DNA of 64,000 bases from a virus. The stretch lies in the IMG/VR virus record IMGVR_UViG_3300031417_000380. One strand, given 5' to 3'. The notes beneath the pieces are model-generated. The model was given only the letters and a program-made list of their open reading frames with translations. It did not search any database and was not told the origin of the DNA. Of the stretch, positions 1 through 64,000 are shown piece by piece (position 1 is the stretch's first letter; each line of letters opens with the position of its first letter). The position numbers and the translations under genes were made by a program.

Positions 1-116
1 ATCGCACCTCAGGTCCGGTGGTACTGCGTGCTAAGGTGGGCGCTAGTCTAGCTCTCATCGAGGCGTAGGTCTAACTGGGTACCATAGCTCAAATCATCAC
101 TCGGTAGGAGACACTC

Positions 117-659
117 ATGGAAAACCCGCTGGAATGGACGCAGGCTGAGAAGATCATTCATCAGGCTTCGCGTAAGTGGGAAGAGGGCCGAGAGCGCGGC
201 GTTGTCGGATTCTCTCGCGTAAAGATGATCTCTCTCGCTCTTCAGGAAGCAGGGCTACTTCTCGATGAGCCTATGGGTAAGCCGGCTCCTGAGCTAGCTA
301 AGCCGGCACTCCCGAACTTCATGGTACTCGAAGACCTAGAGAAGAACTTTGGTTTCACTGAGATTGAGGTCGATCAGGCAGTGGCGGAGGGTCTTATCCT
401 TCGCTTGGAGACCAGCTCAAAATTCCTCTACCCTGCTGCACAGTTCGATGAGCTTGGCGCTACACCGGAGGAGTTGCCGGCGGTACTCGCGATGCTCGAG
501 CGGTTCTTCGGAAGTAAGGATGGATGGGCGGCGAGTTACTGGCTCACCGGTCAGTTCGAGCACAAGGCTGAGGGCCCCACTCGCTTTGAGCACCTCAGAG
601 CACACGGTGCGACAGCGGTTCTTGCGGAGATCGCAAAGGCCATCGGTGCGAACAAGTGA
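117..659 (+). CDS. Rv2175c-like DNA-binding protein (paralog 1 of 4)
   Basis: SD GGAG; motif LILRL..FLYPAAQF..LPAVL..GWAASYWL, shared with 11069, 38610 and the C-terminus of 7726. Confidence 0.6.
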   Translation: MENPLEWTQAEKIIHQASRKWEEGRERGVVGFSRVKMISLALQEAGLLLDEPMGKPAPELAKPALPNFMVLEDLEKNFGFTEIEVDQAVAEGLILRLETSSKFLYPAAQFDELGATPEELPAVLAMLERFFGSKDGWAASYWLTGQFEHKAEGPTRFEHLRAHGATAVLAEIAKAIGANK

Positions 660-982
660 ACCTCTCTAAGCGTCGTCTCTCGTTACGAGCTCTTTTAGCC
701 ACCGTTATCGCTTTAGTAGCACCGTTCGTACTCCTACTTGTCTTTTCGCTAACGGCTAAGATCGTGGCAGCTAGCGGCCCGTTCGACGGACCTTTCGTGG
801 CGTGGGGCGTGTCAGCCTTGTTCCTTGTGCTATCGGTCTTGTGCTTCCTTAGCGTTATCGCTTTTCCGATCGCCTGCGTAGCTTTTTACTACCAGCTGTT
901 TATGCTTTTCGTCGCACCAAATAAGTCTGTGGCTCTTACAGCTCCGGCTCCTGGGCTCATGAACTTACAGAAGCCGGAGTAG
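656..982 (+). CDS. small membrane protein (2 TM)
   Basis: GTGA overlap with upstream stop; two long hydrophobic segments. Confidence 0.6.
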   Translation: MNLSKRRLSLRALLATVIALVAPFVLLLVFSLTAKIVAASGPFDGPFVAWGVSALFLVLSVLCFLSVIAFPIACVAFYYQLFMLFVAPNKSVALTAPAPGLMNLQKPE

Positions 983-1006
983 ACTGAATAGGTGTATGAT
1001 CGCTTT

Positions 1007-1375
1007 ATGACGACAGATCACGACCAGCTTGCCGAAGCAACGCTCGAGCTCTCTATCCAGGAGCTTCTTAGCGGTACTCGAGAGATGCTCGGTGCAAGGC
1101 TTACGGCCTACATCGCCGGCGTGAAGACCACAGGCCAGATCTCAAGCTGGATCGCGGAGGAGTCGCCTGACCTTACCGACGCGCAGCTTCGACGCTTGAG
1201 GCTCGCCTACGTTGTGGCTGCAGCGCTCGTCAACCGTGAGGGTAAGGCCACAACGCAGAGCTGGTTCATGGGGCTCAATCCGGTGCTCGGTGATGTTGCT
1301 CCGGCTCGGCTCATCGTGGAAACCGACGGACGTGACTCGGCTAGCTTGATGCACGCTCTCTTCGACATGCACTGA
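1007..1375 (+). CDS. Xre/MbcA/ParS-like antitoxin-type HTH protein
   Basis: LGARLTAYIAGV..ISSW..RLRLAY..QSWFMGLNPVLGDVAPARLI; ATG 6 nt after TATGAT (995-1000). Confidence 0.6.
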   Translation: MTTDHDQLAEATLELSIQELLSGTREMLGARLTAYIAGVKTTGQISSWIAEESPDLTDAQLRRLRLAYVVAAALVNREGKATTQSWFMGLNPVLGDVAPARLIVETDGRDSASLMHALFDMH

Positions 1376-1381
1376 TTTTTG

Positions 1382-1410
1382 TTGTGCATGCTTTGAGCGT
1401 GTGATACCAT
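1382..1410 (+). promoter_or_regulatory. SigA-type promoter, leaderless
   Basis: TTGTGC-17-TACCAT-7-ATG. Confidence 0.7.
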
Positions 1411-1417
1411 CAATGCT

Positions 1418-1561
1418 ATGACGATCTCAATCTCTTACGACACCAGCGGCTCCATCGACCAGAAGACTTACGCCAAGGCCCTTCGTGCGGTGGAGAACCA
1501 CCGACTCCCCGAGGTTAAGAACCGTGCACAGCGGCGCGCTGAAGCTCGGAACGGTCGCTGA
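1418..1561 (+). CDS. 47-aa hypothetical protein (not in ORF track)
   Basis: Leaderless ATG 7 nt after TACCAT; MTISISYDTSGSIDQKTYAKALRAVENHRLPEVKNRAQRRAEARNGR. Confidence 0.6.
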   Translation: MTISISYDTSGSIDQKTYAKALRAVENHRLPEVKNRAQRRAEARNGR

Positions 1562-1563
1562 TC

Positions 1564-3053: not shown

Positions 3054-3656
3054 GTGAACGCAGTACTGGTCTCGCTCGAGAACCCGGTCGACCGGGCTCT
3101 TATCCACGTGCTTGAGACGCTCGTCGTGGCGAGCAGGTCCTACGGCCGCACGATGCTTGACGACTCGCGCACGGCCTCAAAGATCTTTCTGAGGAAGCTT
3201 TACACTGACCTCTCCGATAAGAAAGCGCTTTCTTTCGACTCAACAGTCCTCTCCGCCGCTGCTGATGCTTTTCTGATGGATTTACCGGCTAACCTGCCTT
3301 TGGAGGTGCGGGCAAAGGTGAACGAGAAGCTGCAGATCGTGCTTGATGAGCAGGCTCGCTACGTTGCTCACCGTACGGACTCAACTGTGAAGGCTCAGCT
3401 TTTGAGCCTCAACCTCTTGTGTGCTGGCCTTCTCGAGTTCCTCGATCCCAGGCATGAGGCGGAGCTTCAGCGTGTGGTCGAACTGCGCGATGCTTATGTG
3501 CTCAACCCGACTCGTGAGACTCTCGCTGAGTACCTCGAAGCCGTTGAGAAGCGTTTCGACATCGACGCACCTAGCTACAACGTCACTCCTGGGCGAGAGG
3601 GTTGGCTTCAGAAAGCTGAAAAGCTCTACGACGAGCTTGCTAAGGAGCTTCAGTAG
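3054..3656 (+). CDS. alpha-helical hypothetical protein (short relative of family C?)
   Basis: SD AAGGA, GTG start; ETLAEYLEAVE resembles the family C LxxY(I/L)xxxE motif. Confidence 0.75.
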   Translation: MNAVLVSLENPVDRALIHVLETLVVASRSYGRTMLDDSRTASKIFLRKLYTDLSDKKALSFDSTVLSAAADAFLMDLPANLPLEVRAKVNEKLQIVLDEQARYVAHRTDSTVKAQLLSLNLLCAGLLEFLDPRHEAELQRVVELRDAYVLNPTRETLAEYLEAVEKRFDIDAPSYNVTPGREGWLQKAEKLYDELAKELQ

Positions 3657-3657: not shown

Positions 3658-4809
3658 ATGAAGTTTCTCTCCACGAACGAAGCTGCTGTGCGATCATTTA
3701 CGAAGAGGATCGCAGCTTCGGTAAGTGATAGTGACCGTCCAGCTGTGGTCGCAGCACTAGAGGGGTTGGTGACTACTTACTTCTCCGGCGAAAAGGGCTT
3801 CAACGTGGCCGCGCCGATAGCTACACGATTTGCTGTGAAGGTCACTGAACTGGTCTCACCTTCCGGCTGGCCCTCCGATGCGGTGAAGACTGCTCGAACC
3901 AGCTTCATTGCCGGCTTCGCAGGTCCGGAGAACGTGCGTTTCTCGCCAGCTCAGCACTTCCGTACTCTCGTCGACGGTCGAAGCGAGCTCAACGCCAGTA
4001 ACTCCCTAGAGGGCCGTTTCGCGGTTCTAATGATGCTTCGTGATTCTGTTGAGCTCACGCGCGAAATTGAGAACGTCAGGAAGCCGCTCAAACTGTATCT
4101 AACGGCGGCTGAACTTCTCACCTATGACGATGAATACCTGGCCACGTTCGGCCGTGAGACAGCTGCTCAGGCTGTTCTAGAAGGTGAGCGCTTGCTCCTT
4201 GGGCTTCCGCCTGTCCGTAACTTTGAGAACGGCTTCTACAAGAACTACCACCCGCTCTACTTAGGCGTGGCCGCGTTTGATCGAGTCATGCGGCTCAATG
4301 CGCCCCTTCCAAAGCACATCGCGCTTCAGCTTAGCACTCATATCCGAAACTTTTACGCACTGAGCCAAAGTCTACCGGAAAGCCCAGGTGCTATTCCGGA
4401 TCAAGCAAGCAAGAAGATCGTTGATGCTATACTTGCTCTCACACCGGAGGCTAGTAAGGAGTGGATTCAAGAAGTCAAGGTTCTTGGTGATGCGTTTGAC
4501 GCTGAAGCTCGCTCTATAAGAGATGGTTTAAACCGCTACAGCTTGTTAGCTCACAGCCACTTCTTTGAGTTCGTCCGGTGTGCGCGTCCTCACAAAGACT
4601 ATCTGGTGGTCAACGTCTGCAATCAGCTCGAGGAAGCTAAGAACAAGGTCTTCGACGCTGAGACACTCGTGAAATACATCGAAGAAGCAGCTCGGGCACT
4701 TGAGCTCGTCGGTCTGGAGAAGCTTCTTGCTCATCCGCTTAATGGTAAGAAACTCCAGGCCATCACTACCGAACTCGAGGTCGCAGTTATCCTTGACCAG
4801 GTCGTCTAG
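3658..4809 (+). CDS. family C helical protein copy 1 (383 aa)
   Basis: ATG 1 nt after upstream stop; LVDGRSELNASNSLEGRF motif. Confidence 0.8.
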   Translation: MKFLSTNEAAVRSFTKRIAASVSDSDRPAVVAALEGLVTTYFSGEKGFNVAAPIATRFAVKVTELVSPSGWPSDAVKTARTSFIAGFAGPENVRFSPAQHFRTLVDGRSELNASNSLEGRFAVLMMLRDSVELTREIENVRKPLKLYLTAAELLTYDDEYLATFGRETAAQAVLEGERLLLGLPPVRNFENGFYKNYHPLYLGVAAFDRVMRLNAPLPKHIALQLSTHIRNFYALSQSLPESPGAIPDQASKKIVDAILALTPEASKEWIQEVKVLGDAFDAEARSIRDGLNRYSLLAHSHFFEFVRCARPHKDYLVVNVCNQLEEAKNKVFDAETLVKYIEEAARALELVGLEKLLAHPLNGKKLQAITTELEVAVILDQVV

Positions 4810-4859: not shown

Positions 4860-6017
4860 GTGCGCTTCACGAATCCCTACGTCTCGCTCATCGAGAACTT
4901 TACCAGCGAGCTACTCGACGAGATCCCAGAGCAGTGGAAGCCCGCCGCAAGCTCAAAGCTTTCCGAGCTCTCAAAGTCGATTATCCCGACGGAGGGATTC
5001 GTAGGCTTCGCCGGCCTTAAAGAGGCGACTATGGCAAACTTTACCTCAGACGTTCGCCAGTTCGTTGAGGTGCCGTATCTGGGAAGTACCACCGATGCTA
5101 GCCGTAAAATCTCGATGACTTTCGCAAGGCTTAATCGTGACCGTCGGAGGCATTTCGTCGGCTGGCTCATCAATCCGGTTGAACATTTTGCTCTTCTCGT
5201 GGACAATCGGAGCGAGCTTGATTGTAGCCCCAAGCTTGAAGCTCGTCTTGCGGAGTTAGAGGCTCTACGCTATCAGACTTGGGCTTCGAACGGCCGTTCG
5301 CTCTCGCCGTATCTAAAGCTCTCGTCAAAGATCGTAGAGAGTAAGGAGTATCGCAGGCTTTTCGGTGTAGACCACCTGGCTCGAGCTCGAGTCGCTAACG
5401 ATCAGCTTCCGCTCGCTCTTCCGCCCAGCCGAAACGTTATTCGTGGGCAGTATCTGCGGAGGAACCCTCTTCAAGAGGAGAGTGACGAGCTGTCAGAAAT
5501 TCTCTCATACGTTGAGGTGCCGAGCAAAAGCGCGAAAAAAGTTGCTTCAGCGACTGCTGATTTCTTTGATTCGGTTGAGGATAACTCTTTTGCTGAGCTT
5601 AAGGCTTCAGCCGTCGGCGAGTGTGCAGAGCTTGTGCTCAGCGCTGGTCACGTAAGCTCTCAGTCTAGGGAAGCAAGACTCGTACGCAGCGCGGTAGCCC
5701 GGTTCGAGCGTAAACTTGAGTCGCTTCAGGCGGGGCTCAATAGCTACTCAGCCGCCGCGAACAAGCATTTTAGTGTTCTGGAGCGTGTAATGCGCCCGTG
5801 GTCGGACACCATAAAGATCAACGTCTTGAATGTAATCGGAGAGTCTGTAGCTCTGGCTAACACCCCTAAGGGCCTTCAACATTATCTTGACAAGTTCGAG
5901 TACATGCTTTGTGTCGCAGGCCTTGAAAGCTTTCTAGCTAGCACTTCGGGTAACGAAGAGCTGTACCGGCTCACAGCCCGACTCGAGGCCACCGCCATGA
6001 TTGACTCAGCAATCTGA
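4860..6017 (+). CDS. family C helical protein copy 2 (385 aa)
   Basis: LVDNRSELDCSPKLEARL motif; similar length and C-terminus to copies 1 and 3. Confidence 0.8.
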   Translation: MRFTNPYVSLIENFTSELLDEIPEQWKPAASSKLSELSKSIIPTEGFVGFAGLKEATMANFTSDVRQFVEVPYLGSTTDASRKISMTFARLNRDRRRHFVGWLINPVEHFALLVDNRSELDCSPKLEARLAELEALRYQTWASNGRSLSPYLKLSSKIVESKEYRRLFGVDHLARARVANDQLPLALPPSRNVIRGQYLRRNPLQEESDELSEILSYVEVPSKSAKKVASATADFFDSVEDNSFAELKASAVGECAELVLSAGHVSSQSREARLVRSAVARFERKLESLQAGLNSYSAAANKHFSVLERVMRPWSDTIKINVLNVIGESVALANTPKGLQHYLDKFEYMLCVAGLESFLASTSGNEELYRLTARLEATAMIDSAI

Positions 6018-6419: not shown

Positions 6420-7613
6420 ATGGATCTGCGAAGCCCTTTCATCACGCTGACTGAAGCCTACTATCGCGAGGCTTTGGAGCTGCTCCCCGCCCATAGTCGA
6501 TTCTCCGTCAGGTCCGCTCTCTACGCCGTTCACGAGTGTCTTCAGACTTACGGGTCGCAGGTCTCGTCACTCGGTGTCAGAACTAACTTCGCAAGCGACT
6601 TTGCGGCTCGCTTGATGGAGCGAGCGAGGTACCTTACCAGCGGGAGAACGTACTACGATCTGAACAAGCTTAGCGATGGCTTCGTCAGAGATTACTTCGG
6701 CCTTCGTGATGGTATCGAGGCCCGAGGCGGCGAGCCTGGCCGCGCAAAGACATTCTTCAAGCTGTTCGAAGAGTGTGTTGATTCTCATGAGTCCGTCGAA
6801 GCGAGTACTCGACTTGAATCGCAGCTTAACGAGTTCATGGCTCGTCGTGACAACGTTGCTCTTCCCCACAGCCTTAGGCTCGAGGATCTGAAGGCGTACC
6901 GAAGAGTTACTGACGAGCTCTTCGCCGATGCTGAGTTCGCTAGGGCCTTCGGGCACACCGAAGAAAAGCTTGAGCTTCTGCGAGCTGAGAACACCAGGCT
7001 AATCGAAGAGCTTGAGATTGATCTTGCTCCGGTGCACAACCTGATTGACGGGCAGTACCGTATTCCAAACCTTTACCGAGAGCTTGTCCAAAACTTTACG
7101 ATCAAGAGCGCTGAACTCGTCACTGATCGCTCGAAGTACGCTACTGTGCGTAACGCCATCATCGCGTTTAGTGTTCTCTTCTCGAAGCTCGGGCGCCGGT
7201 ATACTGTTCAGACTATTGCTTCTGCTGTAGAAAGTCTGAGTCGCGAGCTCGTTACTATCGGCGGGGTTAACCAACTCAAGATTGATTCTCTGGCGCAACA
7301 GTATCTAAGTGACATCCAGTGGCTGAACGACTTCGAGACCCAGCTTCGTGCCGGAGTCGATGACCATTTCACTTCAGTTTGCGAGATCTTCGGCGCGAAC
7401 GAAAAGGCGAAGCAGCTTCAGCTGGACAAGCTCGATCTTCTCCGTCTACAAGTCAGGGATTCTAACTCTCTACTGCGGTACATCGCCGGGTACGAAGTTC
7501 TTGTCAAGCACCAAAGCTTCGCTGATGTTGGCCAGGAGGCTAAACGAAAGCTCGGGAATACTCTCGATCAGCTTGAGGTGGTAGCGATGGAACAGGAGCT
7601 CGAAGAGGCGTAA
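6420..7613 (+). CDS. family C helical protein copy 3 (397 aa)
   Basis: CVDSHESVEASTRLESQL motif; ends LDQLEVVAMEQELEEA. Confidence 0.8.
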   Translation: MDLRSPFITLTEAYYREALELLPAHSRFSVRSALYAVHECLQTYGSQVSSLGVRTNFASDFAARLMERARYLTSGRTYYDLNKLSDGFVRDYFGLRDGIEARGGEPGRAKTFFKLFEECVDSHESVEASTRLESQLNEFMARRDNVALPHSLRLEDLKAYRRVTDELFADAEFARAFGHTEEKLELLRAENTRLIEELEIDLAPVHNLIDGQYRIPNLYRELVQNFTIKSAELVTDRSKYATVRNAIIAFSVLFSKLGRRYTVQTIASAVESLSRELVTIGGVNQLKIDSLAQQYLSDIQWLNDFETQLRAGVDDHFTSVCEIFGANEKAKQLQLDKLDLLRLQVRDSNSLLRYIAGYEVLVKHQSFADVGQEAKRKLGNTLDQLEVVAMEQELEEA

Positions 7614-7725: not shown

Positions 7726-8883
7726 TCAACCGGCCTTGCGCAGAAGCTCGATCACTCGCTCAGGAGCCTCTCCGGCGATGAGCCACTCTCGAGGGCTCTG
7801 CACCTTATCGTTGACGAGGAGCTCTGTGTTGTGGCTGTTGAAGAAGAGGTACGCATCCACCGGCTCCCACGAAGCGGGGATAGCCGCGACGATTGACGAA
7901 AGCTCCGGAAGTACGTCGCTAGCGGTAAACTGCCACTTCGGATAGCGTCGCGCACGACCTACCGTGAAGAAGTAGAGCTCTCCAGCCTGAGCCTTAGCCG
8001 TGAGCTTGTTCACGGAAAGACCGAGTCGCTCAGCAGCATCCTTAGAGCTAAATGTGGAACGGGAAGCTTCAGTGACAGCCTGGCCACGTTCGTAGTTGTC
8101 GCTCACGGTGGTGTCCTCTTCCTGGTCGAGGTCAACGACCTTCATATCGGCCAGGTTAGCTCCACCGGCTAGTAGGGTTGCCGCAGCTACAGCTGTCGAG
8201 GTGCGTCCGCTACCGCCTTTTGACCCGGTGACCGAGATCACCTTGCCCTCGTCCTCTGCAAGCGCCGCATTACGATCCTCCTGAGAGTAACCGGCGAACG
8301 AGCCTGAGCGAGTAGCAGCCACGTACTGACTCATGGAGTTGAGTACGTTCTCGGCACCGCCGGCGGTGGCCGCGAAGGTGATGGCTGAGTGCTCGGGAAT
8401 GTTGAACTGCTTAGCAGTGAGCACAGCGTCCTGGTTCGCACCGATGAACGTGAAGTCCCACGAGTAGACCTCGCGCTGGTGCTTGATTCGATCAGCAAGG
8501 CCTTCGATGGTGATCTCAGTCGAGCTGTTCTCCTGGCCGTCCGTGGCGATCACGAAGATCACGTGGCTGGGACGCTCGTGCTCCGGCATAGCCCCTAGCG
8601 CACGACCGAACGAGTCGATCTTCAGGCCAACAGCGTCGTAGAGTGCGGTCATGCCGCGTGGTCGAAGTTCGAGGTCAAGCTTTTCCTCGTGTGGGTTCAC
8701 AAACGAAGCGCGCTGTTCCACCTTGTCATCGAAGAACGTGGTGTCGATGGTGATGTGGCCGGGCTCGTGGATCTGCTTCTGGACGAACTCTTCGAGAGTG
8801 TCCTGAACTGATTTTGCGATGGTCGACATAGAACCGGAACGGTCTACGACGAGCACCACCGCGGTGTAGTCTTCTCTGGGCAT
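7726..8883 (-). CDS. vWA domain + degenerate ParA-like N-terminal fragment + Rv2175c-like HTH fusion
   Basis: MIDAS DRSGS, TALYDA, TDGQEN; KVISVTGSKGGSGRTS..VVDLD; C-terminal DAAERLGL..RYPKWQF; SD AAGGAGG. Confidence 0.75.
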   Translation of the reverse strand: MPREDYTAVVLVVDRSGSMSTIAKSVQDTLEEFVQKQIHEPGHITIDTTFFDDKVEQRASFVNPHEEKLDLELRPRGMTALYDAVGLKIDSFGRALGAMPEHERPSHVIFVIATDGQENSSTEITIEGLADRIKHQREVYSWDFTFIGANQDAVLTAKQFNIPEHSAITFAATAGGAENVLNSMSQYVAATRSGSFAGYSQEDRNAALAEDEGKVISVTGSKGGSGRTSTAVAAATLLAGGANLADMKVVDLDQEEDTTVSDNYERGQAVTEASRSTFSSKDAAERLGLSVNKLTAKAQAGELYFFTVGRARRYPKWQFTASDVLPELSSIVAAIPASWEPVDAYLFFNSHNTELLVNDKVQSPREWLIAGEAPERVIELLRKAG

Positions 8884-8992
8884 AGAAGCCTCCTTAAACA
8901 GACGGAGAAGTGTAAAAAGTCGTTCGCCGTAAGTCTATCGGCTATCACTTGATTCTGATTACCTGTCGCGGAGCCTGACTATCAGGTGTATC

Positions 8993-9259
8993 ATGACTGC
9001 TATGACTTTCACGACTGATGAGACGTACGCACCGACCACCGCTGGAGAGCGTGCCGCTCTTCGAGAGCACAAGCTCAACGGCGGGGCTTCTACCCTGCGA
9101 GGATCGTTCGAAGCCGGCGTGCAGACCACATCTGTCGAGCCGATGTCGGAGCTCGATCTCGCTACTCTCTGGAACGCCTTCGTTGAGGCGGACATGAAGC
9201 TGAACCGCTCGTACCCGAGCTACGCCGAGGCTTTCATCGCCGGTTACCGCTTCTGCTGA
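8993..9259 (+). CDS. hypothetical protein
   Basis: 88-aa ORF with high GC3, converging on the DUF4031 gene. Confidence 0.65.
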   Translation: MTAMTFTTDETYAPTTAGERAALREHKLNGGASTLRGSFEAGVQTTSVEPMSELDLATLWNAFVEADMKLNRSYPSYAEAFIAGYRFC

Positions 9260-53498: not shown

Positions 53499-53501
53499 CC
53501 G

Positions 53502-53732: not shown

Positions 53733-53816
53733 TGTCTTTCCTTCTGTTGAGTACGCCGATCATACCCTGTCGGTACGACTAGTCATAAAGCTATCCGACC
53801 GAAACGGAGATTCTTC

Positions 53817-54119: not shown

Positions 54120-54258
54120 GGTGACTCCTTCGTTTCCGGCTCCGTTGAGCACGTCGATCGTACATTACAAGTTAAAGCTCTATACAGCTGTCTAAGCGGT
54201 AGAGTTACGGAACCTCACAACGACACGCGGTGACCACGATTCACTGTCTAAGCTGCAG

Positions 54259-55020: not shown

Positions 55021-55298
55021 CGCTCAACGGCCGCCACGTCGTAGACCTGGACAGCGAGCTCCTTAGCGGCGAGCGAGTCGTTGGAGTAGCTCACCAGCTC
55101 GTAGGCGCCGAAGAGCCCGCGGAAGATCTTGAGCTTGGAGTCGCCGGCCTCGAAGAGGGTGTCATGCTGTCGCTGAACGAGCTCCTTCGCCTCGGCGAGC
55201 GCCGGCTCGTCGGCGATGTAGCCGACCTCGTGCATCTTCGCCAGGACAGTGTCCAGGTTACTGAAGGTCTTGAAGTGCGGGAACGTGGGCTTGGCCAT
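55017..55298 (-). CDS. hypothetical protein
   Basis: High GC3; coupled to neighbours. Confidence 0.7.
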   Translation of the reverse strand: MAKPTFPHFKTFSNLDTVLAKMHEVGYIADEPALAEAKELVQRQHDTLFEAGDSKLKIFRGLFGAYELVSYSNDSLAAKELAVQVYDVAAVER

Positions 55299-55299
55299 C

Positions 55300-55560
55300 T
55301 CAGGCTTCCTTCTCTTCGGTGATGCCAGCGAGGAGTCGAAGAGCCAGAACACTAGCGGTGAGCCTCTCGATCTCCGCAGCGTCAGCACGAGCGGCAGCTT
55401 CGTACATGCCGGCGTAGTCTCCGGTTACGGAGCCGTGGACATCGTTCCAGTGCGACTTCGGAGCGGTGGGGTGGCACCATGCGAGAAGCTCAACTTCAAG
55501 CTCCGGGAGACGCTTAAGAGCCTCAGCCTTGGTTGCGGCTTCTGCAGACGTTGTGGGCAT
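55300..55560 (-). CDS. hypothetical protein
   Basis: SD AGGAG; promoter 55593-55621. Confidence 0.7.
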   Translation of the reverse strand: MPTTSAEAATKAEALKRLPELEVELLAWCHPTAPKSHWNDVHGSVTGDYAGMYEAAARADAAEIERLTASVLALRLLAGITEEKEA

Positions 55561-55592
55561 GACTTCTCCTACGGGTGATCGATACTAGCATA

Positions 55593-55621
55593 ACAATACA
55601 CCTTAATACGAGGAGCCACAA
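55593..55621 (-). promoter_or_regulatory. SigA-type promoter
   Basis: TTGTGG-17-TATTGT. Confidence 0.7.
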
Positions 55622-55629
55622 TCTTTTCC

Positions 55630-56517
55630 TTACTCAGCTAACTTGTGATTCTCCCAGACACCGTTATTGAGCACCGCTCCGCGGATGCTGTACGACTTCG
55701 AGCTGTTCCAGAGCCAGTAGAGGAAGTTCGGGTCAACCGTAGCGAAAGCTGCTGCCTCACGGAGCTCCGGAGTCTTGTGGCGGCGAGCTCGCTCTTCACG
55801 AAGCTCTTCGGGAGCCAGGGGATTCTTCACCACGTTGTTGAGTACCGAACGCTTCTTGTCATCGGCCAGGAGCTCCCAGTGGTCGTCACGCACGAGAACA
55901 CTCTCAGCGTACTTCTCACGGTCGTTGATACTGCCGGTAATGGCGAATTCCTGGAGCCGTTCGATCACCTCACGATCCATGTGCTCGAAAGCCCACTGAC
56001 GAGCCTCTCGGAAGCTAGCGAGCCTCGCTACAGAATCGTAGACAACACGGCGAGTGTAGCACTTATCATGCCAGCCCTCGTCAGGAGCCTTGCCTTCACA
56101 CTCTACGTGGATGTCCGGCGCGGGGCTATAGAAGCCCCAGCGAAGATCATCACCGTCAATCTTCCCGTGGTCAGCCGCGGTATCGTAGACGGCCTCCGCG
56201 GTAACGCCCTTGTTGATCTTCCAAGCGATAGCGAAGAGCTCAGGATCGTTGATGGCCCACAGCGGAAGACCGATGCGAGCGAGCAAGTACCGATTTAGCT
56301 TGAAGGTCTCGAAGAGACGGCGCCACTCAGCTTCGGGAAAGTTCTTCGCGAGCATGAGTCCTTCACGAACCTGCACTTCTGTAGAGTAGGACTCAAGCTC
56401 TCCGGATAGCGAGGTGAAGCCTCCGAACTCTGAGTAGATACCCATGAGCTGCTCTTGAGTGAGAGAACTCCGGTTTTCCTTGATGTAGAAGAACGTGTCC
56501 AAGCCGTTTCGAGTCAT
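55630..56517 (-). CDS. hypothetical protein with C-terminal LRV/HEAT-like repeats
   Basis: VLNNVVKNPLAPEEL..IRGAVLNN; ATG 6 nt after TAAAAT. Confidence 0.6.
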   Translation of the reverse strand: MTRNGLDTFFYIKENRSSLTQEQLMGIYSEFGGFTSLSGELESYSTEVQVREGLMLAKNFPEAEWRRLFETFKLNRYLLARIGLPLWAINDPELFAIAWKINKGVTAEAVYDTAADHGKIDGDDLRWGFYSPAPDIHVECEGKAPDEGWHDKCYTRRVVYDSVARLASFREARQWAFEHMDREVIERLQEFAITGSINDREKYAESVLVRDDHWELLADDKKRSVLNNVVKNPLAPEELREERARRHKTPELREAAAFATVDPNFLYWLWNSSKSYSIRGAVLNNGVWENHKLAE

Positions 56518-56565
56518 GGTTCTATTTTACCGATCTTTCGTTGCTAGTGTTGGGGAGACTGAGGG

Positions 56566-57372
56566 TCACGCGTAGAAAAATCGCCCGACTTTATGGTTGA
56601 GTTTCGCCTCGTAGACAGCGTAAATAGCCTCGGCTTCCTCACGCGTGGCCACTGGGAAAACGCCGTGCTCATCCAGAGCTAGAATCACGCTAAGTGGCTC
56701 CTTCGTAAGCAACTCAGCGTTGTTTACCGGACCGTAGGTGTTCTCGCAGTGATGCACCTGAACCTTGAGTCGATCTCTAGTGAGGTATTCATCAGCGAAG
56801 CCTGGAGCAATAGCGAGCTCCTCCATAGTATCCTGTGCTGCGGAAAGCCAGCGATCGAGCCTCTCAAGACCGGTGACCAGGGAGTAGCGACGGCCCCGCC
56901 AGGCGGCCAGTAGACAAAGATCGAAGTTACGGAAGTAGCGGAACACGAGGTTCTGAACAGCCGAGTCTACTCTCGGGCTATCGAATCCAACAGTATTAAA
57001 CGCAACCTCCATAGTGGACTGAATCGAGTGTGGCTCGACGCCGGAGAACTCTCTGTCCTTTACGGTTTTTGCGTCCAGGTCGAAGTCTGAGAGCGGCGGC
57101 GCGTAGATGCTGAAGAGCTCTCGACTCATGGCAGGAGCTAGCCCCTGCACCGGAACCTTCGGTAGATTCTGATCTAACAGCATGAGCCAAAGATCCTCGA
57201 AGTACCTAGGCATGTTCGGCGCTGCGCGACTCACTACCTCTGCTAGATACGGAAGCTGCAGTACTCCGTCCTTCGCCACAGCCTGGCCTAGGCGTACCTG
57301 CTCCGGCTCCCAGAGGTGCTCAATGTAATGGCGCGTAATGATCTTTACTTCGAGCGAGTGAAGCACGGTCAT
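56566..57372 (-). CDS. family H copy 11
   Basis: IEHLWEPE; RELFSIY.P; LLAAWRGRRY.LVTGL.RLDRW. Confidence 0.85.
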   Translation of the reverse strand: MTVLHSLEVKIITRHYIEHLWEPEQVRLGQAVAKDGVLQLPYLAEVVSRAAPNMPRYFEDLWLMLLDQNLPKVPVQGLAPAMSRELFSIYAPPLSDFDLDAKTVKDREFSGVEPHSIQSTMEVAFNTVGFDSPRVDSAVQNLVFRYFRNFDLCLLAAWRGRRYSLVTGLERLDRWLSAAQDTMEELAIAPGFADEYLTRDRLKVQVHHCENTYGPVNNAELLTKEPLSVILALDEHGVFPVATREEAEAIYAVYEAKLNHKVGRFFYA

Positions 57373-58337
57373 AGGAGATTCCTCCAAAAACCAGTCAGGG
57401 TCTTGAACGTAGCGAGCTTCTCTTCGGCCATGAGAACCTCGGGCGGCTTCAGGAAGTGACGGTTGGCGCCAAGCCCGTCCGAACGAGAGCTCTTATTCTC
57501 AGCTACAGCGTAAGCGTCAAGAAGCTTAACAGCTTCCTCGCGTGTGATTCCTGTTACTAGCTCCGAGCCGGTCCAGCCAACAACGGTGGTCAGAGGAATG
57601 CTTTCCATCTCCACAATGAGAGGATCTTTGGTTTGAGAGAATATTGCAAATAGGCGATCGTAGTCTTGTTCGTTAATCAAGTTCGTAATGAGCTTACGGT
57701 TGATGAGCTCATCGGCAACTCCGTTTGGAAGCGTGAACTCTCCAAGAGCCGTCTGAACTTCTGCAAGCCAGTCGTCTAGCTTCGGCAGACCGGTGATGAT
57801 CTCGTAGCGGCGGCCGCGCCAAGCTGCGCCGAGAAGATTCTCCACTGTCTCTGTGAAAGCGTAGAGCCGTCGAATCCTCGACTCTCTTTCATGAGAGTCT
57901 TTGAGCACGCTAATCTGTTTAATAGCCTTGTTGAGTTCTCGGTCGATCGGGTCGCTGCTCGTAGAAAATGTAAGCGCGAAAGGGTCGAGTCTTCTCTCAT
58001 CTGCTGGGTGCTTCGGCATACGCTCGAAGTTTAGCTTCGGCAAAGTCGGCATGTAGAGCTCAAAGAGATCGCGGTTCATGGAGCGCCCGGGACCAGCCTT
58101 AATCAGGGTTTGAAGTCTGCGATTGAAGTCATCGATGTAGTAATCTGAGAAGCTCTCTGAATCCCGATCAGGAAGCGTTGAGAGCGCATCCGACAAGAAG
58201 CGGGGAGTTAGATTATTCTCATCATCGTAGAGCGTCGGCTCATCGGAGCGCCATTCCTCGAGGAACAGGCTCTTTACCATCTGCGATTCAGAGTGCTCGA
58301 GAAAATCCAGATAGGCGTTCTCCGGAAGCTTGGTCAC
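57369..58337 (-). CDS. family H copy 12 (longest)
   Basis: MVKSLF..E.R; NRDLFELYMP; LLGAAWRGRRY.IITGLPKLDDW..EFTLP; leaderless GTG. Confidence 0.85.
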   Translation of the reverse strand: MTKLPENAYLDFLEHSESQMVKSLFLEEWRSDEPTLYDDENNLTPRFLSDALSTLPDRDSESFSDYYIDDFNRRLQTLIKAGPGRSMNRDLFELYMPTLPKLNFERMPKHPADERRLDPFALTFSTSSDPIDRELNKAIKQISVLKDSHERESRIRRLYAFTETVENLLGAAWRGRRYEIITGLPKLDDWLAEVQTALGEFTLPNGVADELINRKLITNLINEQDYDRLFAIFSQTKDPLIVEMESIPLTTVVGWTGSELVTGITREEAVKLLDAYAVAENKSSRSDGLGANRHFLKPPEVLMAEEKLATFKTLTGFWRNLL

Positions 58338-58343
58338 ATGACC

Positions 58344-58372
58344 AATCTATACGACGAAACAGTCAAACGCAA
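58344..58372 (-). promoter_or_regulatory. SigA-type promoter, leaderless (family H copies 12 and 11)
   Basis: TTGCGT-17-TAGATT-6-GTG. Confidence 0.7.
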
Positions 58373-58469
58373 CGAGCCGGATTAAACGCTATCTGCACAG
58401 CGATTGTTAAATCAGCTCTTACTGCAAGCCCACCGTCGATGGACGGTAGGCGCAGGTGTGAGGGCAGAG

Positions 58470-58790
58470 TCAGGCGCGGAGGGGTCGCTCCTCAACCAGA
58501 AGATCCTCGCCGACCGGGTTCGGCGTGCCGGTGATGTACCGATCAGCGGCCTCGCGAGTCGTGAAGATGTCCACCAGGCGTGACCCTTCGGCGTATCCCG
58601 CGAAGGGGCCGCTGAAGTCGGGGACGCGAGCCACCACTGTGAAGACGGTCCCGGCGCTGGTGAAGGTGTTCTCGAAGTTGGCGCGTTCCTGAGCCTGAGC
58701 GAGACGTGCCGTAGCAGCCTCGAGCTCGTGCTGGGCCGCGAGCACGGAGGCGTCAGCGGCGGCGGTGTTGCTGTTCGTGTTGATGGGCAT
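58470..58790 (-). CDS. hypothetical protein
   Basis: Leaderless promoter 58797-58825; high GC3. Confidence 0.75.
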   Translation of the reverse strand: MPINTNSNTAAADASVLAAQHELEAATARLAQAQERANFENTFTSAGTVFTVVARVPDFSGPFAGYAEGSRLVDIFTTREAADRYITGTPNPVGEDLLVEERPLRA

Positions 58791-58796
58791 GGTTTG

Positions 58797-58825
58797 ATCT
58801 TACACCGTCAACTCAAAGCGCGCAA
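58797..58825 (-). promoter_or_regulatory. SigA-type promoter, leaderless
   Basis: TTGCGC-17-TAAGAT-6-ATG. Confidence 0.8.
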
Positions 58826-58834
58826 CACAAAAGT

Positions 58835-59182
58835 TTAGTTCAACTCCGATTCTGGGTGAAGGCTAAAATCCACTACGGATGAGTATTCTCCGTGAGTTAC
58901 CAGGTAAGCCTCAAAGACGGCTTCTGGAGGAAGCTCTCTCGGGTCGCAGGAGAGCTCGAGCCGAAGCTTAGCCGTCTCTCCAGGATTGACTGAAGAGCGA
59001 CGGGTCACCATGAAAAGCTTGAAGCGGAAGTTGAGGCGCCTCTGGTCTTTCTTGGTGAATCCGCTATATCCGTAGACCACCGGCGTTGTGGACTGCGGCA
59101 TAGAGCCTGTATTCGTCCACTCTAAATGCAGAATATTAGGGCTCTTCTCATCGAACCGAGTCTTTCCAGCATACCTAACCAC
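58835..59182 (-). CDS. MVTRRS family copy 1
   Basis: FKLFMVTRRSSVNPGE..LELS. Confidence 0.8.
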   Translation of the reverse strand: MVRYAGKTRFDEKSPNILHLEWTNTGSMPQSTTPVVYGYSGFTKKDQRRLNFRFKLFMVTRRSSVNPGETAKLRLELSCDPRELPPEAVFEAYLVTHGEYSSVVDFSLHPESELN

Positions 59183-59531
59183 GGTGATTACTCCTTAGCT
59201 CATCCGCGAGATCCCCGAGCTCCAAGCTGATAACGTTGTACGTCTCACCGGACGATGAGAAGAACACCGACAGCGACGAGCCCGACGGATACTCAGTAAT
59301 AGCCGTCGAAAGTTCCAGGCGCATCTTCACTACTTCTCCGGGATTCGCGACCGAACGCCGTGTCACCATGAAAAGCTTGAAGACTTTGAGCTCTTTAAGC
59401 TCGTCTTTATGCTTACGCCAGAACATGCGAATCTTAACCGGCGCGACAGAGCGCGGGATAGAACCTTCGTGAGTGTACTTAATGTGGACGATGTGATCGT
59501 TAGTTGGATCTGCTGTAAGTTCCACGCTCAT
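59175..59531 (-). CDS. MVTRRS family copy 2
   Basis: FKLFMVTRRSVANPGE..LELS. Confidence 0.8.
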   Translation of the reverse strand: MSVELTADPTNDHIVHIKYTHEGSIPRSVAPVKIRMFWRKHKDELKELKVFKLFMVTRRSVANPGEVVKMRLELSTAITEYPSGSSLSVFFSSSGETYNVISLELGDLADELRSNHRG

Positions 59532-59827
59532 GTGAGACTCCAGGTTCGTCGCCAGCCACCGCTATAAGCTGCTTCATGTGCTAAAGTTACCTCCACTTTG
59601 CTTCCAAGCTCGCTCAACGGGGCTTCAAGAGTAACGTCCATCACTACTTTCTCACCAGGATTCGCTACTGATCGGCGAGTCACCATTTTAACGGTGACTG
59701 CGCGCTTGTCTCGACTGTGCTTGTGAAGAACTCCGTCAAGAAACCCGGAGTGGGGATAAGCAGCCACGGGAAATAGGCTTTTGTTTACCCACGACAGTCG
59801 ATGTACAGTTTTGTCGGCTTCAGCCAC
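59528..59827 (-). CDS. MVTRRS family copy 3
   Basis: VKMVTRRSVANPGE..TLE. Confidence 0.8.
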   Translation of the reverse strand: MAEADKTVHRLSWVNKSLFPVAAYPHSGFLDGVLHKHSRDKRAVTVKMVTRRSVANPGEKVVMDVTLEAPLSELGSKVEVTLAHEAAYSGGWRRTWSLT

Positions 59828-59851: not shown

Positions 59852-61306
59852 TCATACCGAGCTTGAGTGGACAGATCGGGAACGAGCGTAGGCCCAAACA
59901 GCACAGGTGGCCGATAGCGCAGCCAACACAGCGATCATAACGGTCGTCGCGAGGCTAAACGACTCCGTCTCTCTTGCAGTCCAACTGACAGACGCGGTGT
60001 TGAGGTGGCCAACCGCCGCTAACCCGATGGTCACCGCCGTAACACCGATGCTCGCGGCAAGCTGTGCAGCAGTGTCTACTAGCGAAGCGCCGAGCCCGGT
60101 GCGCTCTTTCGGAAGCCCTCGGAAGACGTTCGTACCGGCCACTAGTCCGTTGATCCGCATCCCCGCTGCCACTAAGACTAGCGCGAGAGCAATCCAGAGA
60201 TAGCCGTGTGCGTTCATCACGGCGTAGAGAACAAGCCCAGCTACGGTGAGGGCTGAGCTTGCCCAAGCCGCTACAGAGAAGCCGTAGCGTTTCACGAACC
60301 GATCTGTAAACGGCCCCACTATGAGGAGCGTTACCACCTGAGGGAGCATCCCCACCGCGGCTAGAGCCGGAGACCAGCCGTAGCCCAACTGCAGCTGAAG
60401 CGTCACCGCGTAGCTGAGCCCTGCAGTAGCAAAGCCGACGGCGGCCTTGTAGAGTAGACCACTAGAGACAAGCGGTAACGTCACTAGCTCAAACGGGAGC
60501 AACGGCGTCGAGGCAGCACGCTCGCGCAAGACGAAAGCGCCCCAGAGAGCTACAGCTGAGGCTGTTACAGCCCAAAAGCTGACAGAAGCTTTCTCAGCTA
60601 CGAAGAGCGTAGGAGCCAGAAGCGTTGCTCCGATCGCAGCGGCGCCGAGAAAAGCTCCGCCGACATCGAGTCTTGAGCGTAGTAGCTCTTCCTTCGAGTC
60701 AGCTCCGACACCTCGAGCGATACCGAAGATCGCGAGTACCGCTAAAGGCGCGTTGAAGACGAGGAGTCCCTGCCACGGAGCAATCGTAAGTAAAAGGCCT
60801 CCAACAGTGGGCCCGACAGCAAGGCCGATGAGCCCCACCGTCGAGACCAGGCTCATGGCTCTGAGTCGTAGAGAATCGTTCTCGAAGAGTCGGAACGTTA
60901 GCGCGAGCGAAAGTGGGGTAGTCATGGCCGCGGCTACTCCCATGAGGCCACGCACTAGAATCAACTCGTATGGAGTGGTAAACAGTGCTGTACTAGAGCT
61001 TACTACAGCTAGGAGTGTGAGGCCGATGAGCATGAGTCGCTTACGGCCGAAACGATCCGCCAGTGAGCCGAAGAGAAGCATGAGTCCGGCGAAGACCACC
61101 GGATAGACGCCGTTTATCCAGCCAAGCTCAAGCGTTGAAGCGTGGAGACTGCGACCGATGGTAGGGAGGGCCACGGTGAGAATCGAGTTGTCGACCATCT
61201 CGAACAGGAATACCGCGGCGAGACCGGCGAGTGCAAGCCAGGCCTGGCGTAGTGATTGGGGAGAAACTACCTTCGAGCTAGAACGAAGTAGGGAGGCGAT
61301 TGCCAT
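59852..61306 (-). CDS. MFS transporter, DHA2 (14-TM) drug:H+ antiporter type
   Basis: DNSILTVALPTI, motif A GSLADRFGRKR, GLAVGPTVGG; likely start MAIAS at 61306. Confidence 0.88.
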   Translation of the reverse strand: MAIASLLRSSSKVVSPQSLRQAWLALAGLAAVFLFEMVDNSILTVALPTIGRSLHASTLELGWINGVYPVVFAGLMLLFGSLADRFGRKRLMLIGLTLLAVVSSSTALFTTPYELILVRGLMGVAAAMTTPLSLALTFRLFENDSLRLRAMSLVSTVGLIGLAVGPTVGGLLLTIAPWQGLLVFNAPLAVLAIFGIARGVGADSKEELLRSRLDVGGAFLGAAAIGATLLAPTLFVAEKASVSFWAVTASAVALWGAFVLRERAASTPLLPFELVTLPLVSSGLLYKAAVGFATAGLSYAVTLQLQLGYGWSPALAAVGMLPQVVTLLIVGPFTDRFVKRYGFSVAAWASSALTVAGLVLYAVMNAHGYLWIALALVLVAAGMRINGLVAGTNVFRGLPKERTGLGASLVDTAAQLAASIGVTAVTIGLAAVGHLNTASVSWTARETESFSLATTVMIAVLAALSATCAVWAYARSRSVHSSSV

Positions 61307-61602
61307 GAGCGCGACCTTCAGAGGAAGGGTGGCAGGAGCTGTTCCTGCGTGTGAGCGCGCCGAGCACGTTTTTACCGTAGTGAGTACACTATATCGACTG
61401 TTTCTCAAACGCTCGCTCAAGCTTAAAACAGCGCTATGCTCGACCGTCCAAAATCCCTTACTAGTCTGGGGGAGTAGAGGGTCTCTAAGCGCAGCTAGCG
61501 AGGTTCTTTCGCTGCAAGTGTCAGTTCTGTCGGGTTATACGACTTGAACGCTTTAGCTGCTTAGACAGCCGCTAAGCTCACGAGATCAGTCAACTAAAAT
61601 TG

Positions 61603-62027: not shown

Positions 62028-62030
62028 GTG

Positions 62031-62059
62031 TTGCACGGACGTGATTGATGGTGTAATGT
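62031..62059 (+). promoter_or_regulatory. SigA-type promoter, leaderless
   Basis: TTGCAC-17-TAATGT-7-ATG. Confidence 0.8.
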
Positions 62060-62066
62060 TAGCCTC

Positions 62067-62279
62067 ATGGACAACGACAACGCTCACACCTTCACGATCC
62101 GCGTCTCCACCGCCGACGGCGCCCTGATCGGCGAGGACACCGACTTCGCCGAGGACGCTCGCTGGGACTGGTTCGACCAGACGATCAACTTCGCCACTCC
62201 CGGCGAGGTGATCCAGCTCATCGATCGAGCCAACGGCACCGCTGACGGCGTGGTGATCGCTGAGGAGATCAAGGAGTAA
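62067..62279 (+). CDS. acidic hypothetical protein
   Basis: Leaderless promoter; high GC3. Confidence 0.75.
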   Translation: MDNDNAHTFTIRVSTADGALIGEDTDFAEDARWDWFDQTINFATPGEVIQLIDRANGTADGVVIAEEIKE

Positions 62280-62289
62280 CAGTACTTAC

Positions 62290-62329
62290 GCAAGAGGGAG
62301 GGCGGCCGATTGGCTACCCTCCCTCTTGC
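62290..62329. terminator. bidirectional terminator
   Basis: 13-bp perfect arms between convergent genes. Confidence 0.75.
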
Positions 62330-62343
62330 TGTTAGCTTCGATC

Positions 62344-63684
62344 TCAGTCGCGCACGGTGACGGTGCTGCCGACCTGCAGGAACTCATAGACCCACTTGGA
62401 GTCATCTACCGGAAGATTCACGCAGCCGTGGCTCATGTTAGAAGTCGGGTTACCGAAGTTGTTGTGCCAGTAGGCTCCGTGGAAGCCCTGATCGCCGTTG
62501 AAGTAGGAAACGTACGGCACGTTAGCGGTGCAGTAGTCGAATGATCCACCCGGACGGAAAGCTCCGGAGGGAGTACACGAACCCATGTTCTGGCTCGTAA
62601 GCTGAGTGTAGACCTTAAATGTACCGGTCTGCGTGTCGTGCCCTGCCTTACCGATGGCGACCGGGATACGCTTAACCTCTTGAGTGTTCTCGTAGAAGTA
62701 GGCGTAGTGGTCCGACTTATCAACGACAGCGGTACGAAGAAGCATCTTCGGCTTGTGCTTGTCGGCTTTACCGGGCACCTCAACACGATCCGTCGGCTTG
62801 TCGCTCACCGCGCCTTTAACAGCATCTGAAAGCTGTTTCGCGATCTCCTCTTTAGAGCCAGGCTTGAAACCGTCTTGAGAAGCCTTCAGCACCTTAAGTG
62901 ATTCGCCCTCGTTGCCGGAGATCTCCTCACCGTCCACGCGATCACGCTTGAGCGATGTACTGTACTCTGCGGCGAGAGCATTAATCGCTTCAGCCTTCGG
63001 CTCAAGCGTGAGCTTCCCATCCTCGTTCTTCACCGTAGCAAGCTTCGCAAGATCAGCGCTACCGAGAGTAGCGAACTTGGTCTCACCGCCGTAAACTCCC
63101 ACCGCTGCGCTGTTAAGTCGATCCGCTGCAGCCTGCGCAGTAGCTGTGGTGATCTGTGGCTCGCTGTCAGTGAGCTTTAAGTCGAGCTCCTTGTCGCCCT
63201 TGTCCAGAGCTTCCTTGAGCTTCGCGGTGAGATCGGCTGAAAGTTTACGCCCGTTCTCGCCAGGAGCCACGCGCCAACCGCCGTCGTAGTTCACGACAGC
63301 GTTCTTCGGAGCGTTGAACCCCTCGATCTTCGAGAGTGACTGCTGCTCTTGCTTTACGTCTGTCTTGAGCTCTACCTTGTAGTCGCGATTCCAATCGGTG
63401 AACGACCAGGCGCGGGGCGCTGTAGGAAGCTCTTTAGCCGTGACGCCGAGCTCGCCGGCAGTGAACTTCTGTCTGTCTACCGTGACGGGGAAACTCTTGA
63501 GAGCGTTCTCAAAGCTTTTAGCCGGAGCATCCCCGCTTACACCGATCAGCGAGCCGTAGCCCTCAACAGTGGTGCCGGGCGCTCGCAGCACGGTAAGCCC
63601 AAGAGCACCGACGACGAGAACGCCGGCGACGATCCCGGCGGGAAGCTTAAGTTTCGAGGTGTTAACCATGGGATGGACCTCCAA
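62344..63684 (-). CDS. L,D-transpeptidase (YkuD) with N-terminal TM and VanW/PG-binding-like region
   Basis: GFHGAYWH..SHGCVNLP catalytic motif; VAIGK..TQTG.F.V. Confidence 0.9.
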   Translation of the reverse strand: MEVHPMVNTSKLKLPAGIVAGVLVVGALGLTVLRAPGTTVEGYGSLIGVSGDAPAKSFENALKSFPVTVDRQKFTAGELGVTAKELPTAPRAWSFTDWNRDYKVELKTDVKQEQQSLSKIEGFNAPKNAVVNYDGGWRVAPGENGRKLSADLTAKLKEALDKGDKELDLKLTDSEPQITTATAQAAADRLNSAAVGVYGGETKFATLGSADLAKLATVKNEDGKLTLEPKAEAINALAAEYSTSLKRDRVDGEEISGNEGESLKVLKASQDGFKPGSKEEIAKQLSDAVKGAVSDKPTDRVEVPGKADKHKPKMLLRTAVVDKSDHYAYFYENTQEVKRIPVAIGKAGHDTQTGTFKVYTQLTSQNMGSCTPSGAFRPGGSFDYCTANVPYVSYFNGDQGFHGAYWHNNFGNPTSNMSHGCVNLPVDDSKWVYEFLQVGSTVTVRD

Positions 63685-63783
63685 TAGGAGCCACTATCAG
63701 CGTGAGAGGTGCAGTACCTAGTATTCTACCAATCGACTTAGCCGTTGCGTAACGATTCGGTACGATCATAGCGTGGTGCAGAT

Positions 63784-64000
63784 ATGCTGAGTCGAAGCGA
63801 GCGGGTAGCCCGTCATCGAGGAACGGCTGAAGAGATCGAGCGATTCCTTGCCGATGGGCAGCCGCAAACGGTCACGCTAGTGCTCTACGTCGTAGGGCTG
63901 CGATGTGGCCTTATAGCTGACGATGTGGCGCCGACTCTCAGCACGCTCCATGCTCGTGGTGTTGTAACCATCGACTTCGTCCACAACCTCGTGAAGCTGT
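63784..64000 (+). CDS. partial ORF running off the window end
   Basis: Open from ATG 63784 for 72 codons. Confidence 0.45.
   Translation, partial: MLSRSERVARHRGTAEEIERFLADGQPQTVTLVLYVVGLRCGLIADDVAPTLSTLHARGVVTIDFVHNLVKL

Follow-up and report, generated by a model that had tools for sequence, protein, structure and literature searches.

We regard the 64,000-nucleotide stretch analyzed here (hereafter the window; IMG/VR virus record IMGVR_UViG_3300031417_000380) as an internal part of a giant mobile element that measures 740 kb or more, most probably a megaphage of leaf, litter, or soil Actinomycetes, a reading to which we assign a probability of roughly 55%. The window is unusually rich in paralogous genes and lies in a zone of gene families spanning 100 kb or more, where local tandem duplication gave rise to at least ten lineage-specific families. 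The duplications are old, the copies are, where tested, kept one by one by selection, and the birth and death of whole genes continues slowly. A first-pass annotation of the window had described a "genome-accordion" accessory region in a jumbo actinophage or giant plasmid of a Micrococcales-like host. Our analysis confirms the observation that underlay this description and partly supports its interpretation as a whole: identification of the element as a megaphage is probable, and it may represent a phage of record size.

An exact match of its arginyl-tRNA synthetase (ArgRS) protein shows the window to be a slice of a 740,336-bp MEGAHIT contig (k141_1142885, ENA assembly ERZ27247408), in which window position 1 corresponds to record position ~530,235 and the window is internal, at about 530–594 kb. 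By exact-protein walking we read 102 kb of this contig, from record position ~521.8 to 623.6 kb, which corresponds to window coordinates −8437 to about 93,400; all positions below are given in window coordinates. A second assembly, a 727,102-bp Joint Genome Institute (JGI) metagenome contig, encodes proteins that fall into the same clusters at 90%. Together these contigs bear out the earlier view that the sequence derives from a giant element, and both lie above the size limits used for jumbo phages (200 kb) and megaphages (500 kb). The sequence is present in runs of eight studies labeled as phyllosphere, leaf litter, soil, plant, or "metagenome", and our literature searches recovered no published description of the element. 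Its depth in one phyllosphere run is about 8,000–10,000, and the assembly of that run is shattered into ~1-kb pieces with minority variants at 95–99% identity (41500–59500); the element is extremely abundant in that run and occurs there as several strains. Another run, labeled with the name of an organism and not as a metagenome, contains the element at a depth of 100–500. No RNA run was listed as containing an 8-kb stretch of the window; two leaf-litter metatranscriptome runs share 6–9% of the words of a 2-kb stretch, a level that is not usable as evidence.

For the analysis of paralogy we used a simple set of non-overlapping open reading frames (ORFs), which gives 120 genes in the window at 92% coding density, and defined families by all-versus-all BLASTP, phmmer, jackhmmer, and family hidden Markov models (HMMs). 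About 41 of the ~120 ORFs in the window are paralogs and fall into 10 families (12, 5, 5, 4, 4, and 3 members, together with four pairs), a result that closely reproduces the ~44 genes in about 11 mostly tandem families counted in the first-pass annotation. The pattern continues past both ends of the window, and 74 of the 184 ORFs (40%) over the 102 kb belong to families. Matches to the family HMMs range from 1e-19 to 1e-77, far below chance. With a jackhmmer pipeline applied uniformly, the share of genes in families was 30% in the window, compared with 6% and 22% in two 50-kb windows of phage G and 12% and 3% in two 60-kb windows of a Pseudarthrobacter chromosome. The closest relative of a given copy is usually its neighbor. 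Profile-profile comparison (hhalign) revealed no common origin among the families that we term A, B, C, and D. We also considered whether larger blocks had been duplicated, with A and C genes or D-D-D units copied together, and rejected this possibility, as the bit-score matrices contain no block pattern.

The largest family in the window, family A, consists of 12 tandem or near-tandem paralogs of ~231–322 aa (~245 aa) on the minus strand at 42661–58337, with starts at 42661, 43349, 44098, 44828, 45596, 46345, 48711, 49457, 52764, 54259, 56566, and 57369. Four further copies lie outside the window at 70995–76476, giving 16 in the 102 kb; members share 17–43% protein identity (BLASTP, alignment) and match the family HMM at 1e-57 to 1e-77. 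Family B has five members in the window, all on the plus strand (1975–2580, 3054–3656, 3658–4809, 4860–6017, and 6420–7613), of which that at 3054–3656 is a weak match (E 8e-5). Over the 102 kb it reaches 23 members, with three just left of the window and 15 in tandem at 79811–93386, and its alignment is marked by the motifs LQxHF, RDxxF, and LEVA. Family C comprises three tandem copies of 99–118 aa in the window (58835–59827, minus strand) and six more at 73108–79158, for a total of nine in the 102 kb. Family D, with seven members in the 102 kb, includes a tandem trio starting at 23504, 23959, and 24525 (23504–25025, plus strand), a short member at 29777–30013 (minus strand), and three further copies outside the window at 64653–66061.

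Two smaller families are named here after sequence motifs. The MIxFQ family comprises five coupled small membrane proteins of 124–143 aa at 32649–34674 (minus strand) that have a common N-terminus, MI(E/Q/G)FQ(K/Q/T)(A/D)P; four were joined by jackhmmer, and the protein at 32649 was joined to that at 34243 by BLASTP. The GFHAY family has three tandem members with a C-terminal Cys/His cluster at 30683–32608 and a fourth copy at 40095–40871, all on the minus strand. Its alignment contains 41 invariant columns, including GFHA, HxQ, and CxxC...CxxH, and it has a weak match to DUF7666. The four paralog pairs are 117/11069, 7726/38610, 26398/27082, and 1564/6061.

The duplications that gave rise to these families are old, as copies retain 15–40% identity between their proteins and next to no similarity between their DNA sequences. 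Direct repeats above 72% identity are absent from the window, and the sole trace of paralogy at the DNA level lies in the GFHAY genes (67–72% over 144 nt). A 109,033-bp contig from another study (Logan SRR31127331), ~97% identical to the window, is collinear with it over 41.5–59.5 kb, and a 14-kb contig from a third study is likewise collinear within the region of the family A array. Two segments differ in those two strains, 53724–53826 and 54925–55251, which are replaced by unrelated sequence of 108 and 322 nt, respectively; around them the 18 kb differ only by ~2–3% point changes. The second of these segments covers the N-terminus of the family A member at 54259–55020 and most of the ORF at 55017–55388. 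At greater distance, an 87-kb contig (L089; ENA ERZ27247428) with 73–80% nucleotide identity is collinear over 34.6–53.4 kb, and the eight family A genes that it covers are 1:1 orthologs with 59–72% amino acid identity, rates of synonymous substitution (dS) of 1.2–1.9, and ratios of nonsynonymous to synonymous rates (dN/dS) of 0.12–0.19. Where tested, purifying selection maintains each copy across lineages of the element that have reached saturation at synonymous sites. Given this collinearity and 1:1 orthology, the expansions are older than the split between these lineages, and each copy is a gene under constraint of its own.

Turnover in this region takes the form of a slow birth and death of whole genes. 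Compared with window positions 1–13.7 kb, a 96–97% identical strain (the SRR31127331 contig) has four gene-scale indels: it has lost most of 1975–2580, the family B gene at 6420–7613, and 9704–10129, and it has gained an 88-aa gene by insertion at 6067. Four such events in 13.7 kb, against none in the 18-kb family A array, indicate that turnover is uneven along the region. At the locus corresponding to 40095–40871, L089 has two tandem GFHAY copies (221 and 177 aa) where the window has one. The same relative encodes proteins of 213 and 201 aa next to its AAA ATPase gene, a position at which the window keeps only a 77-aa ORF (35628–35861, minus strand). The N-terminal 54 aa of this ORF correspond to the start of the 213-aa gene, and its end corresponds to the last 25 aa of the 201-aa gene; judging from this composite sequence, the ORF is a deletion remnant, and about 1 kb with two genes has been lost in the lineage of the window. 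Neither near-identical tandem copies nor swings in copy number, as expected of a recent accordion, were found, and the changes detected amount only to single-gene presence or absence (6420–7613 and the extra GFHAY copy). The array is therefore a stable product of old expansion, a "fossil" and not an accordion in motion. The first-pass idea of an accordion holds insofar as genes are slowly born and lost; recent, fluctuating amplification is not supported, given a 12-gene array that is collinear between strains and a window free of repeats above 72% identity.

The two largest families have few detectable relatives. Only 20 representatives among 1.84 billion proteins match family A, all of them metagenomic; no protein of this family was found in any NCBI genome of a 15-billion-protein collection, and tblastn gave no match in GenBank phages. 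Homolog searches by word matching, run with the profiles of families A and B, recovered only 3–4 proteins each. An AlphaFold2 model of family A based on 24 sequences is all-alpha and confident, with a predicted local distance difference test (pLDDT) score of 86.5 and a predicted template modeling (pTM) score of 0.85. It has no convincing fold match in PDB (Foldseek), VIA-wide, BFVD, or AFDB clusters; the best match, to a helical bundle, reaches Z 6.5 over 66 residues. Fragments of sigma-factor domain 2 also matched, at Z 4–5, and were judged generic. The corresponding model of family B is all-alpha and of moderate confidence (pLDDT 70.6), with no match in PDB, and the ESM Atlas gave no usable match. 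The families may be diversified host-interaction effectors that act in host takeover or in anti-defense and counter-defense.

The gene content of the element as a whole is unlike that of a bacterial chromosome or an ordinary plasmid. Over the 102 kb, only 12–13 of the ~190 called genes (~7%) have Pfam matches, the median ORF is 128 aa, and 28 of the 75 same-strand neighbor pairs overlap. Motifs resembling Shine-Dalgarno (SD) sequences precede 44% of starts, compared with 16% of random positions. GC content is 52–59%; that of actinomycetes is typically well above this. Neither the window nor its flanks contain tRNA genes, Rfam matches (rRNA included), or chromosomal operons, and no ribosomal or central-metabolism gene is present in the 102 kb, in which ArgRS is the only gene of a core type. 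The absence of conserved chromosomal operons and the contrast with bacterial chromosomes that were noted in the first-pass annotation are thus upheld over a longer stretch.

Sequence relationships support the Actinomycetes as the group from which the element drew genes or in which it resides. The ArgRS gene (argS, 18130–19875, plus strand) is full length, carries the Pfam domains Arg_tRNA_synt_N, tRNA-synt_1d, and DALR_1, and passes the TIGR00456 equivalog cut-off (489 bits versus 262). Its best 80 genomic relatives are all from Actinomycetes, at 51–58% identity. In a phylogenetic tree the protein lies on a long branch with no family-level affinity, and the Micrococcales-like host proposed earlier is accordingly not borne out, while the broader actinobacterial link is, both by these relatives and by matches of two further proteins, described below, to actinophages. 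Four metagenomic ArgRS sequences are closer, at 83, 68, 67, and 60% identity, and together with the window sequence they form a five-member clade with 100/100 support, apart from all cellular Actinomycetes ArgRS. One of these relatives, on a 19-kb contig, is also in NCBI, and a relative of the element may already sit in a public metagenome-assembled genome. This clade, together with an AAA protein that is found in other lineages of the element at 81% and 56% identity, points to an old and diversified lineage that carries ArgRS vertically.

Several of the recognizable proteins match phage protein families. A protein combining a von Willebrand factor A (vWA) domain with a ParA-like N-terminal fragment (~55 aa) and a helix-turn-helix (HTH) domain (7726–8883, minus strand; Pfam matches below cut-off; partial paralog at 38610–39212) matches phrog_7371 at 1.4e-45, a family with 194 phage records, mostly from Streptomyces and Microbacterium phages. 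Its vWA domain is 36–40% identical to proteins of phages of these two genera. Just left of the window, at −2037 to 68, are two adjacent paralogs of DnaB-C-type helicases (374 and 256 aa), of which the DnaB-like helicase has 31% identity to Arthrobacter and Microbacterium phage helicases; a NUDIX hydrolase also lies to the left of the window, and a replication or nucleotide module may begin here. The AAA+ ATPase (35858–37429, minus strand; phrog_29662), which has an N-terminal domain of ~270 aa, is kept in three lineages of the element. Its AAA module is 34% identical to those of jumbo phages AR9 and PBS1, with phage homologs matching the C-terminal half only. A free-standing HNH endonuclease (17228–17614, plus strand) was identified with PHROG, as was a DUF4031 protein.

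A macro-domain protein that resembles the ADP-ribosyl glycohydrolase domain of the antitoxin DarG is encoded within the family A array but on the other strand (47551–48045, plus strand); it matches phrog_335, the PADLOC DarG model (2e-24), and an NCBIfam model (6e-23, below cut-off). With 93% amino acid identity and dN/dS of 0.08 between lineages, it ranks second in conservation among the called genes, behind a 59-aa ORF at 39368–39547 (95%). On the basis of its sequence, this protein may counter DNA ADP-ribosylation of the DarT type; PADLOC otherwise gave only generic AAA matches.

Other genes in the window are more reminiscent of hosts. An AP endonuclease 2 or deoxyribonuclease-IV-like protein (10132–10926, minus strand), annotated as nfo in the first pass, has a clear Pfam AP_endonuc_2 domain and falls below the cut-offs of NF002198 (188 versus 244 bits) and TIGR00587 (93 versus 130 bits). 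Its sequence thus indicates an Nfo-like TIM-barrel nuclease and not a certified ortholog, so that among the host-like genes first reported argS, the transporter, and the transpeptidase stand as named and nfo is reduced to Nfo-like. The transporter is of the major facilitator superfamily (MFS) and of the DHA2 14-helix efflux type by Pfam and NCBIfam (59852–61420, minus strand); its public gene call of 484 aa begins 38 codons later than the longest ORF, and its best NCBIfam model, Tet(43), scores 265 bits against a cut-off of 999. The L,D-transpeptidase (YkuD, 62344–63669, minus strand) has an N-terminal signal or anchor sequence, and its best full-length matches among 401 Actinomycetota genomes are only 33–34% identical. 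A NERD-domain protein recognized by Pfam is encoded at 21016–22119 (plus strand). We also observed an inverted repeat of 96 nt with 76% complementarity (28842–28937 and 61415–61510), whose arms are 32 kb apart. Both arms are intergenic or nearly so, each is upstream of genes in divergent orientation, and they may constitute a shared regulatory region.

The interpretation of the element as a megaphage must be made cautiously, as several observations weigh against it. First among these is that genes for terminase, capsid, portal, and tail proteins are all missing from the Pfam tables and PHROG scans of the 102 kb that we read out of 740 kb, and it is for this reason that we grade phage identity only as probable. 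PHROG matches were obtained for only 8 of the 40 proteins scanned (the vWA protein, the AAA protein, the HNH, DUF4031, and Macro proteins, members of two families of unknown function, and a helicase paralog), and most proteins match nothing. In the IMG/VR copy that we searched, the AAA protein, the helicase, the GFHAY proteins, and an alignment of AAA sequences found no relatives, and an ArgRS alignment found matches at only 44–47%; similarly, megablast of 46 kb against GenBank phages gave no match. The best full-length homologs of the AAA+ protein (29–30% identity, 98% coverage) are on megaplasmids of Pseudomonas, Citrobacter, and Streptomyces and not in phages, and an MFS efflux-type transporter together with an L,D-transpeptidase would be unusual phage cargo. 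Finally, neither AlphaFold2 model has an informative fold match, and the role proposed for the families is one that we purely infer. A more specific version of this reading can nevertheless be entertained, to which we give clearly less than even odds: that the contig is the near-complete genome of an Actinomycetes megaphage of at least 740 kb, from a clade without a representative in GenBank phages or in the IMG/VR copy searched, with more than 100 kb devoted to at least ten families that have apparently new all-alpha folds and are kept by selection copy by copy, a counterpart to what is seen in African swine fever virus (ASFV) and poxviruses.

Among the alternatives, the one that survives best, and that we consider unlikely, holds that an actinobacterium carries the element as giant extrachromosomal DNA that is not viral, either a megaplasmid or a new Borg-like element, in which the arrays would be accessory cargo such as immunity-type families or families for surface and host interaction. 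In its favor, the 102 kb include no virion gene, and the IMG/VR copy searched has no relative of the lineage; the full-length homologs of the AAA+ protein on megaplasmids of 180–910 kb, including 26 Streptomyces plasmids, fit this scenario, as does a cargo of MFS, YkuD, and vWA/ParA-like/HTH proteins that is more plasmid-like than phage-like. Against it, no Rep, complete ParAB, relaxase, conjugation, or type IV secretion gene was found in the 102 kb, where the only trace of a ParA-like sequence is that in 7726–8883. The Pfam share of ~7% and the median ORF of 128 aa are also far below those of known plasmids, the best-scoring recognizable proteins belong to phage families, and the GC content of 55% lies well below the norm for Actinomycetes.

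One may also postulate that the contig is part of the chromosome of a small-genome relative of the Actinomycetes or, within such a chromosome, a genomic island or prophage of very large size. A deep cellular lineage would look much like the separate and old ArgRS lineage that we recovered beside cellular Actinomycetes, the very high abundance in one phyllosphere run (depth about 9,000) would be compatible with a cellular organism, and the size of the contig is within the range of the smallest cellular genomes. We consider this scenario improbable, and clearly more so than that of a plasmid, given that 102 kb without ribosomal, tRNA, rRNA, or central-metabolism genes and with Pfam matches for so few genes is unlike even the reduced genomes of symbionts or of the Candidate Phyla Radiation (CPR), that 40% of the genes are lineage-specific paralogs, and that family A occurs in no NCBI genome of the collection searched. 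An assembly artefact, whether a chimera or collapsed or expanded repeats mimicking arrays, might be suspected of a single short-read MEGAHIT contig from a strain-mixed sample, yet it is very improbable, as the 18-kb array is spanned unrearranged by the independent 109,033-bp contig and by the 14-kb contig of the third study, the independent 87-kb contig, from a diverged lineage, keeps the same order over 19 kb, and the paralogs (at most 43% amino acid identity, no DNA identity) are too divergent to be assembly duplicates.

If the element is a megaphage, as we favor, its closest parallels are phage G (498 kb) and the huge phages, with which it shares its size class, its short and mostly hypothetical genes, an aminoacyl-tRNA synthetase, NUDIX, homing endonucleases, a helicase, AAA ATPases, and stretches rich in paralogs (22% in one phage G window). 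Huge phages known from metagenomes reach 735 kb (Al-Shayeb et al. 2020, PMC7162821), and the largest phage genome size named in a 2026 review is likewise 735 kb (PMC13282480), which 740 kb would exceed. The element differs from these megaphages in that its 102 kb include neither a virion or packaging gene nor a tRNA cluster, its share of paralogs is higher (30–40%), its host link is actinobacterial, and its lineage is absent from GenBank phages and the IMG/VR copy searched. The N-terminal ~205 aa of 7726–8883 match the vWA proteins of Microbacterium, Streptomyces, and Gordonia phages (phrog_7371) end to end, whereas in the element this domain is fused to the ParA-like fragment and HTH, and the phages that carry it are of 40–170 kb and have no other detected genes in common with the element.

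Comparable gene-family arrays are found in large DNA viruses of eukaryotes. The MGF110, MGF360, and MGF505 multigene families of ASFV and the host-range families of poxviruses consist, as in the window, of tandem and diverged paralogs spread over large regions, with gain and loss of whole genes between isolates and a presumed role in host interaction. The element departs from these families and from the "genomic accordion" of poxviruses in its prokaryotic gene organization, in which SD motifs are present and start codons overlap stop codons, in the lack of near-identical recent copies, and in a main array that does not change between strains or lineages. Borgs, giant linear plasmids, and the plasmid families of Borrelia resemble the element as very large extrachromosomal DNA with lineage-specific paralogs and hypothetical genes; they belong to a different host domain or phylum, and the recognizable genes of the element are of phage type.

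We propose that each family copy is adapted to a host target or allele of its own, as is presumed for the families of large eukaryotic DNA viruses. Between the families lie a helicase pair, NUDIX, HNH, NERD, AAA+, macrodomain, vWA, ArgRS, Nfo-like, MFS, and YkuD genes, a set that we judge to be like that of large phages, in which ArgRS, the macrodomain protein, and the nuclease would help to sustain translation and keep DNA intact while a long infection proceeds. The ArgRS clade shows a translation gene to have been inherited vertically over a long time within a mobile element. More generally, old tandem expansion followed by divergence and copy-by-copy retention provides a model of how the genomes of very large prokaryotic viruses or elements are filled, and several diverged lineages are already available for comparing the evolution of the paralogs. 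The families of 16 and 23 members, which have no recognizable fold or homolog, are candidates for new host-interaction or counter-defense functions. If the element is viral, phages would reach a larger maximum size than known so far, and plant-surface actinobacteria would join the hosts of megaphages; if it is not, it would be extrachromosomal DNA of actinobacteria of a new and giant kind, an outcome of no less interest.

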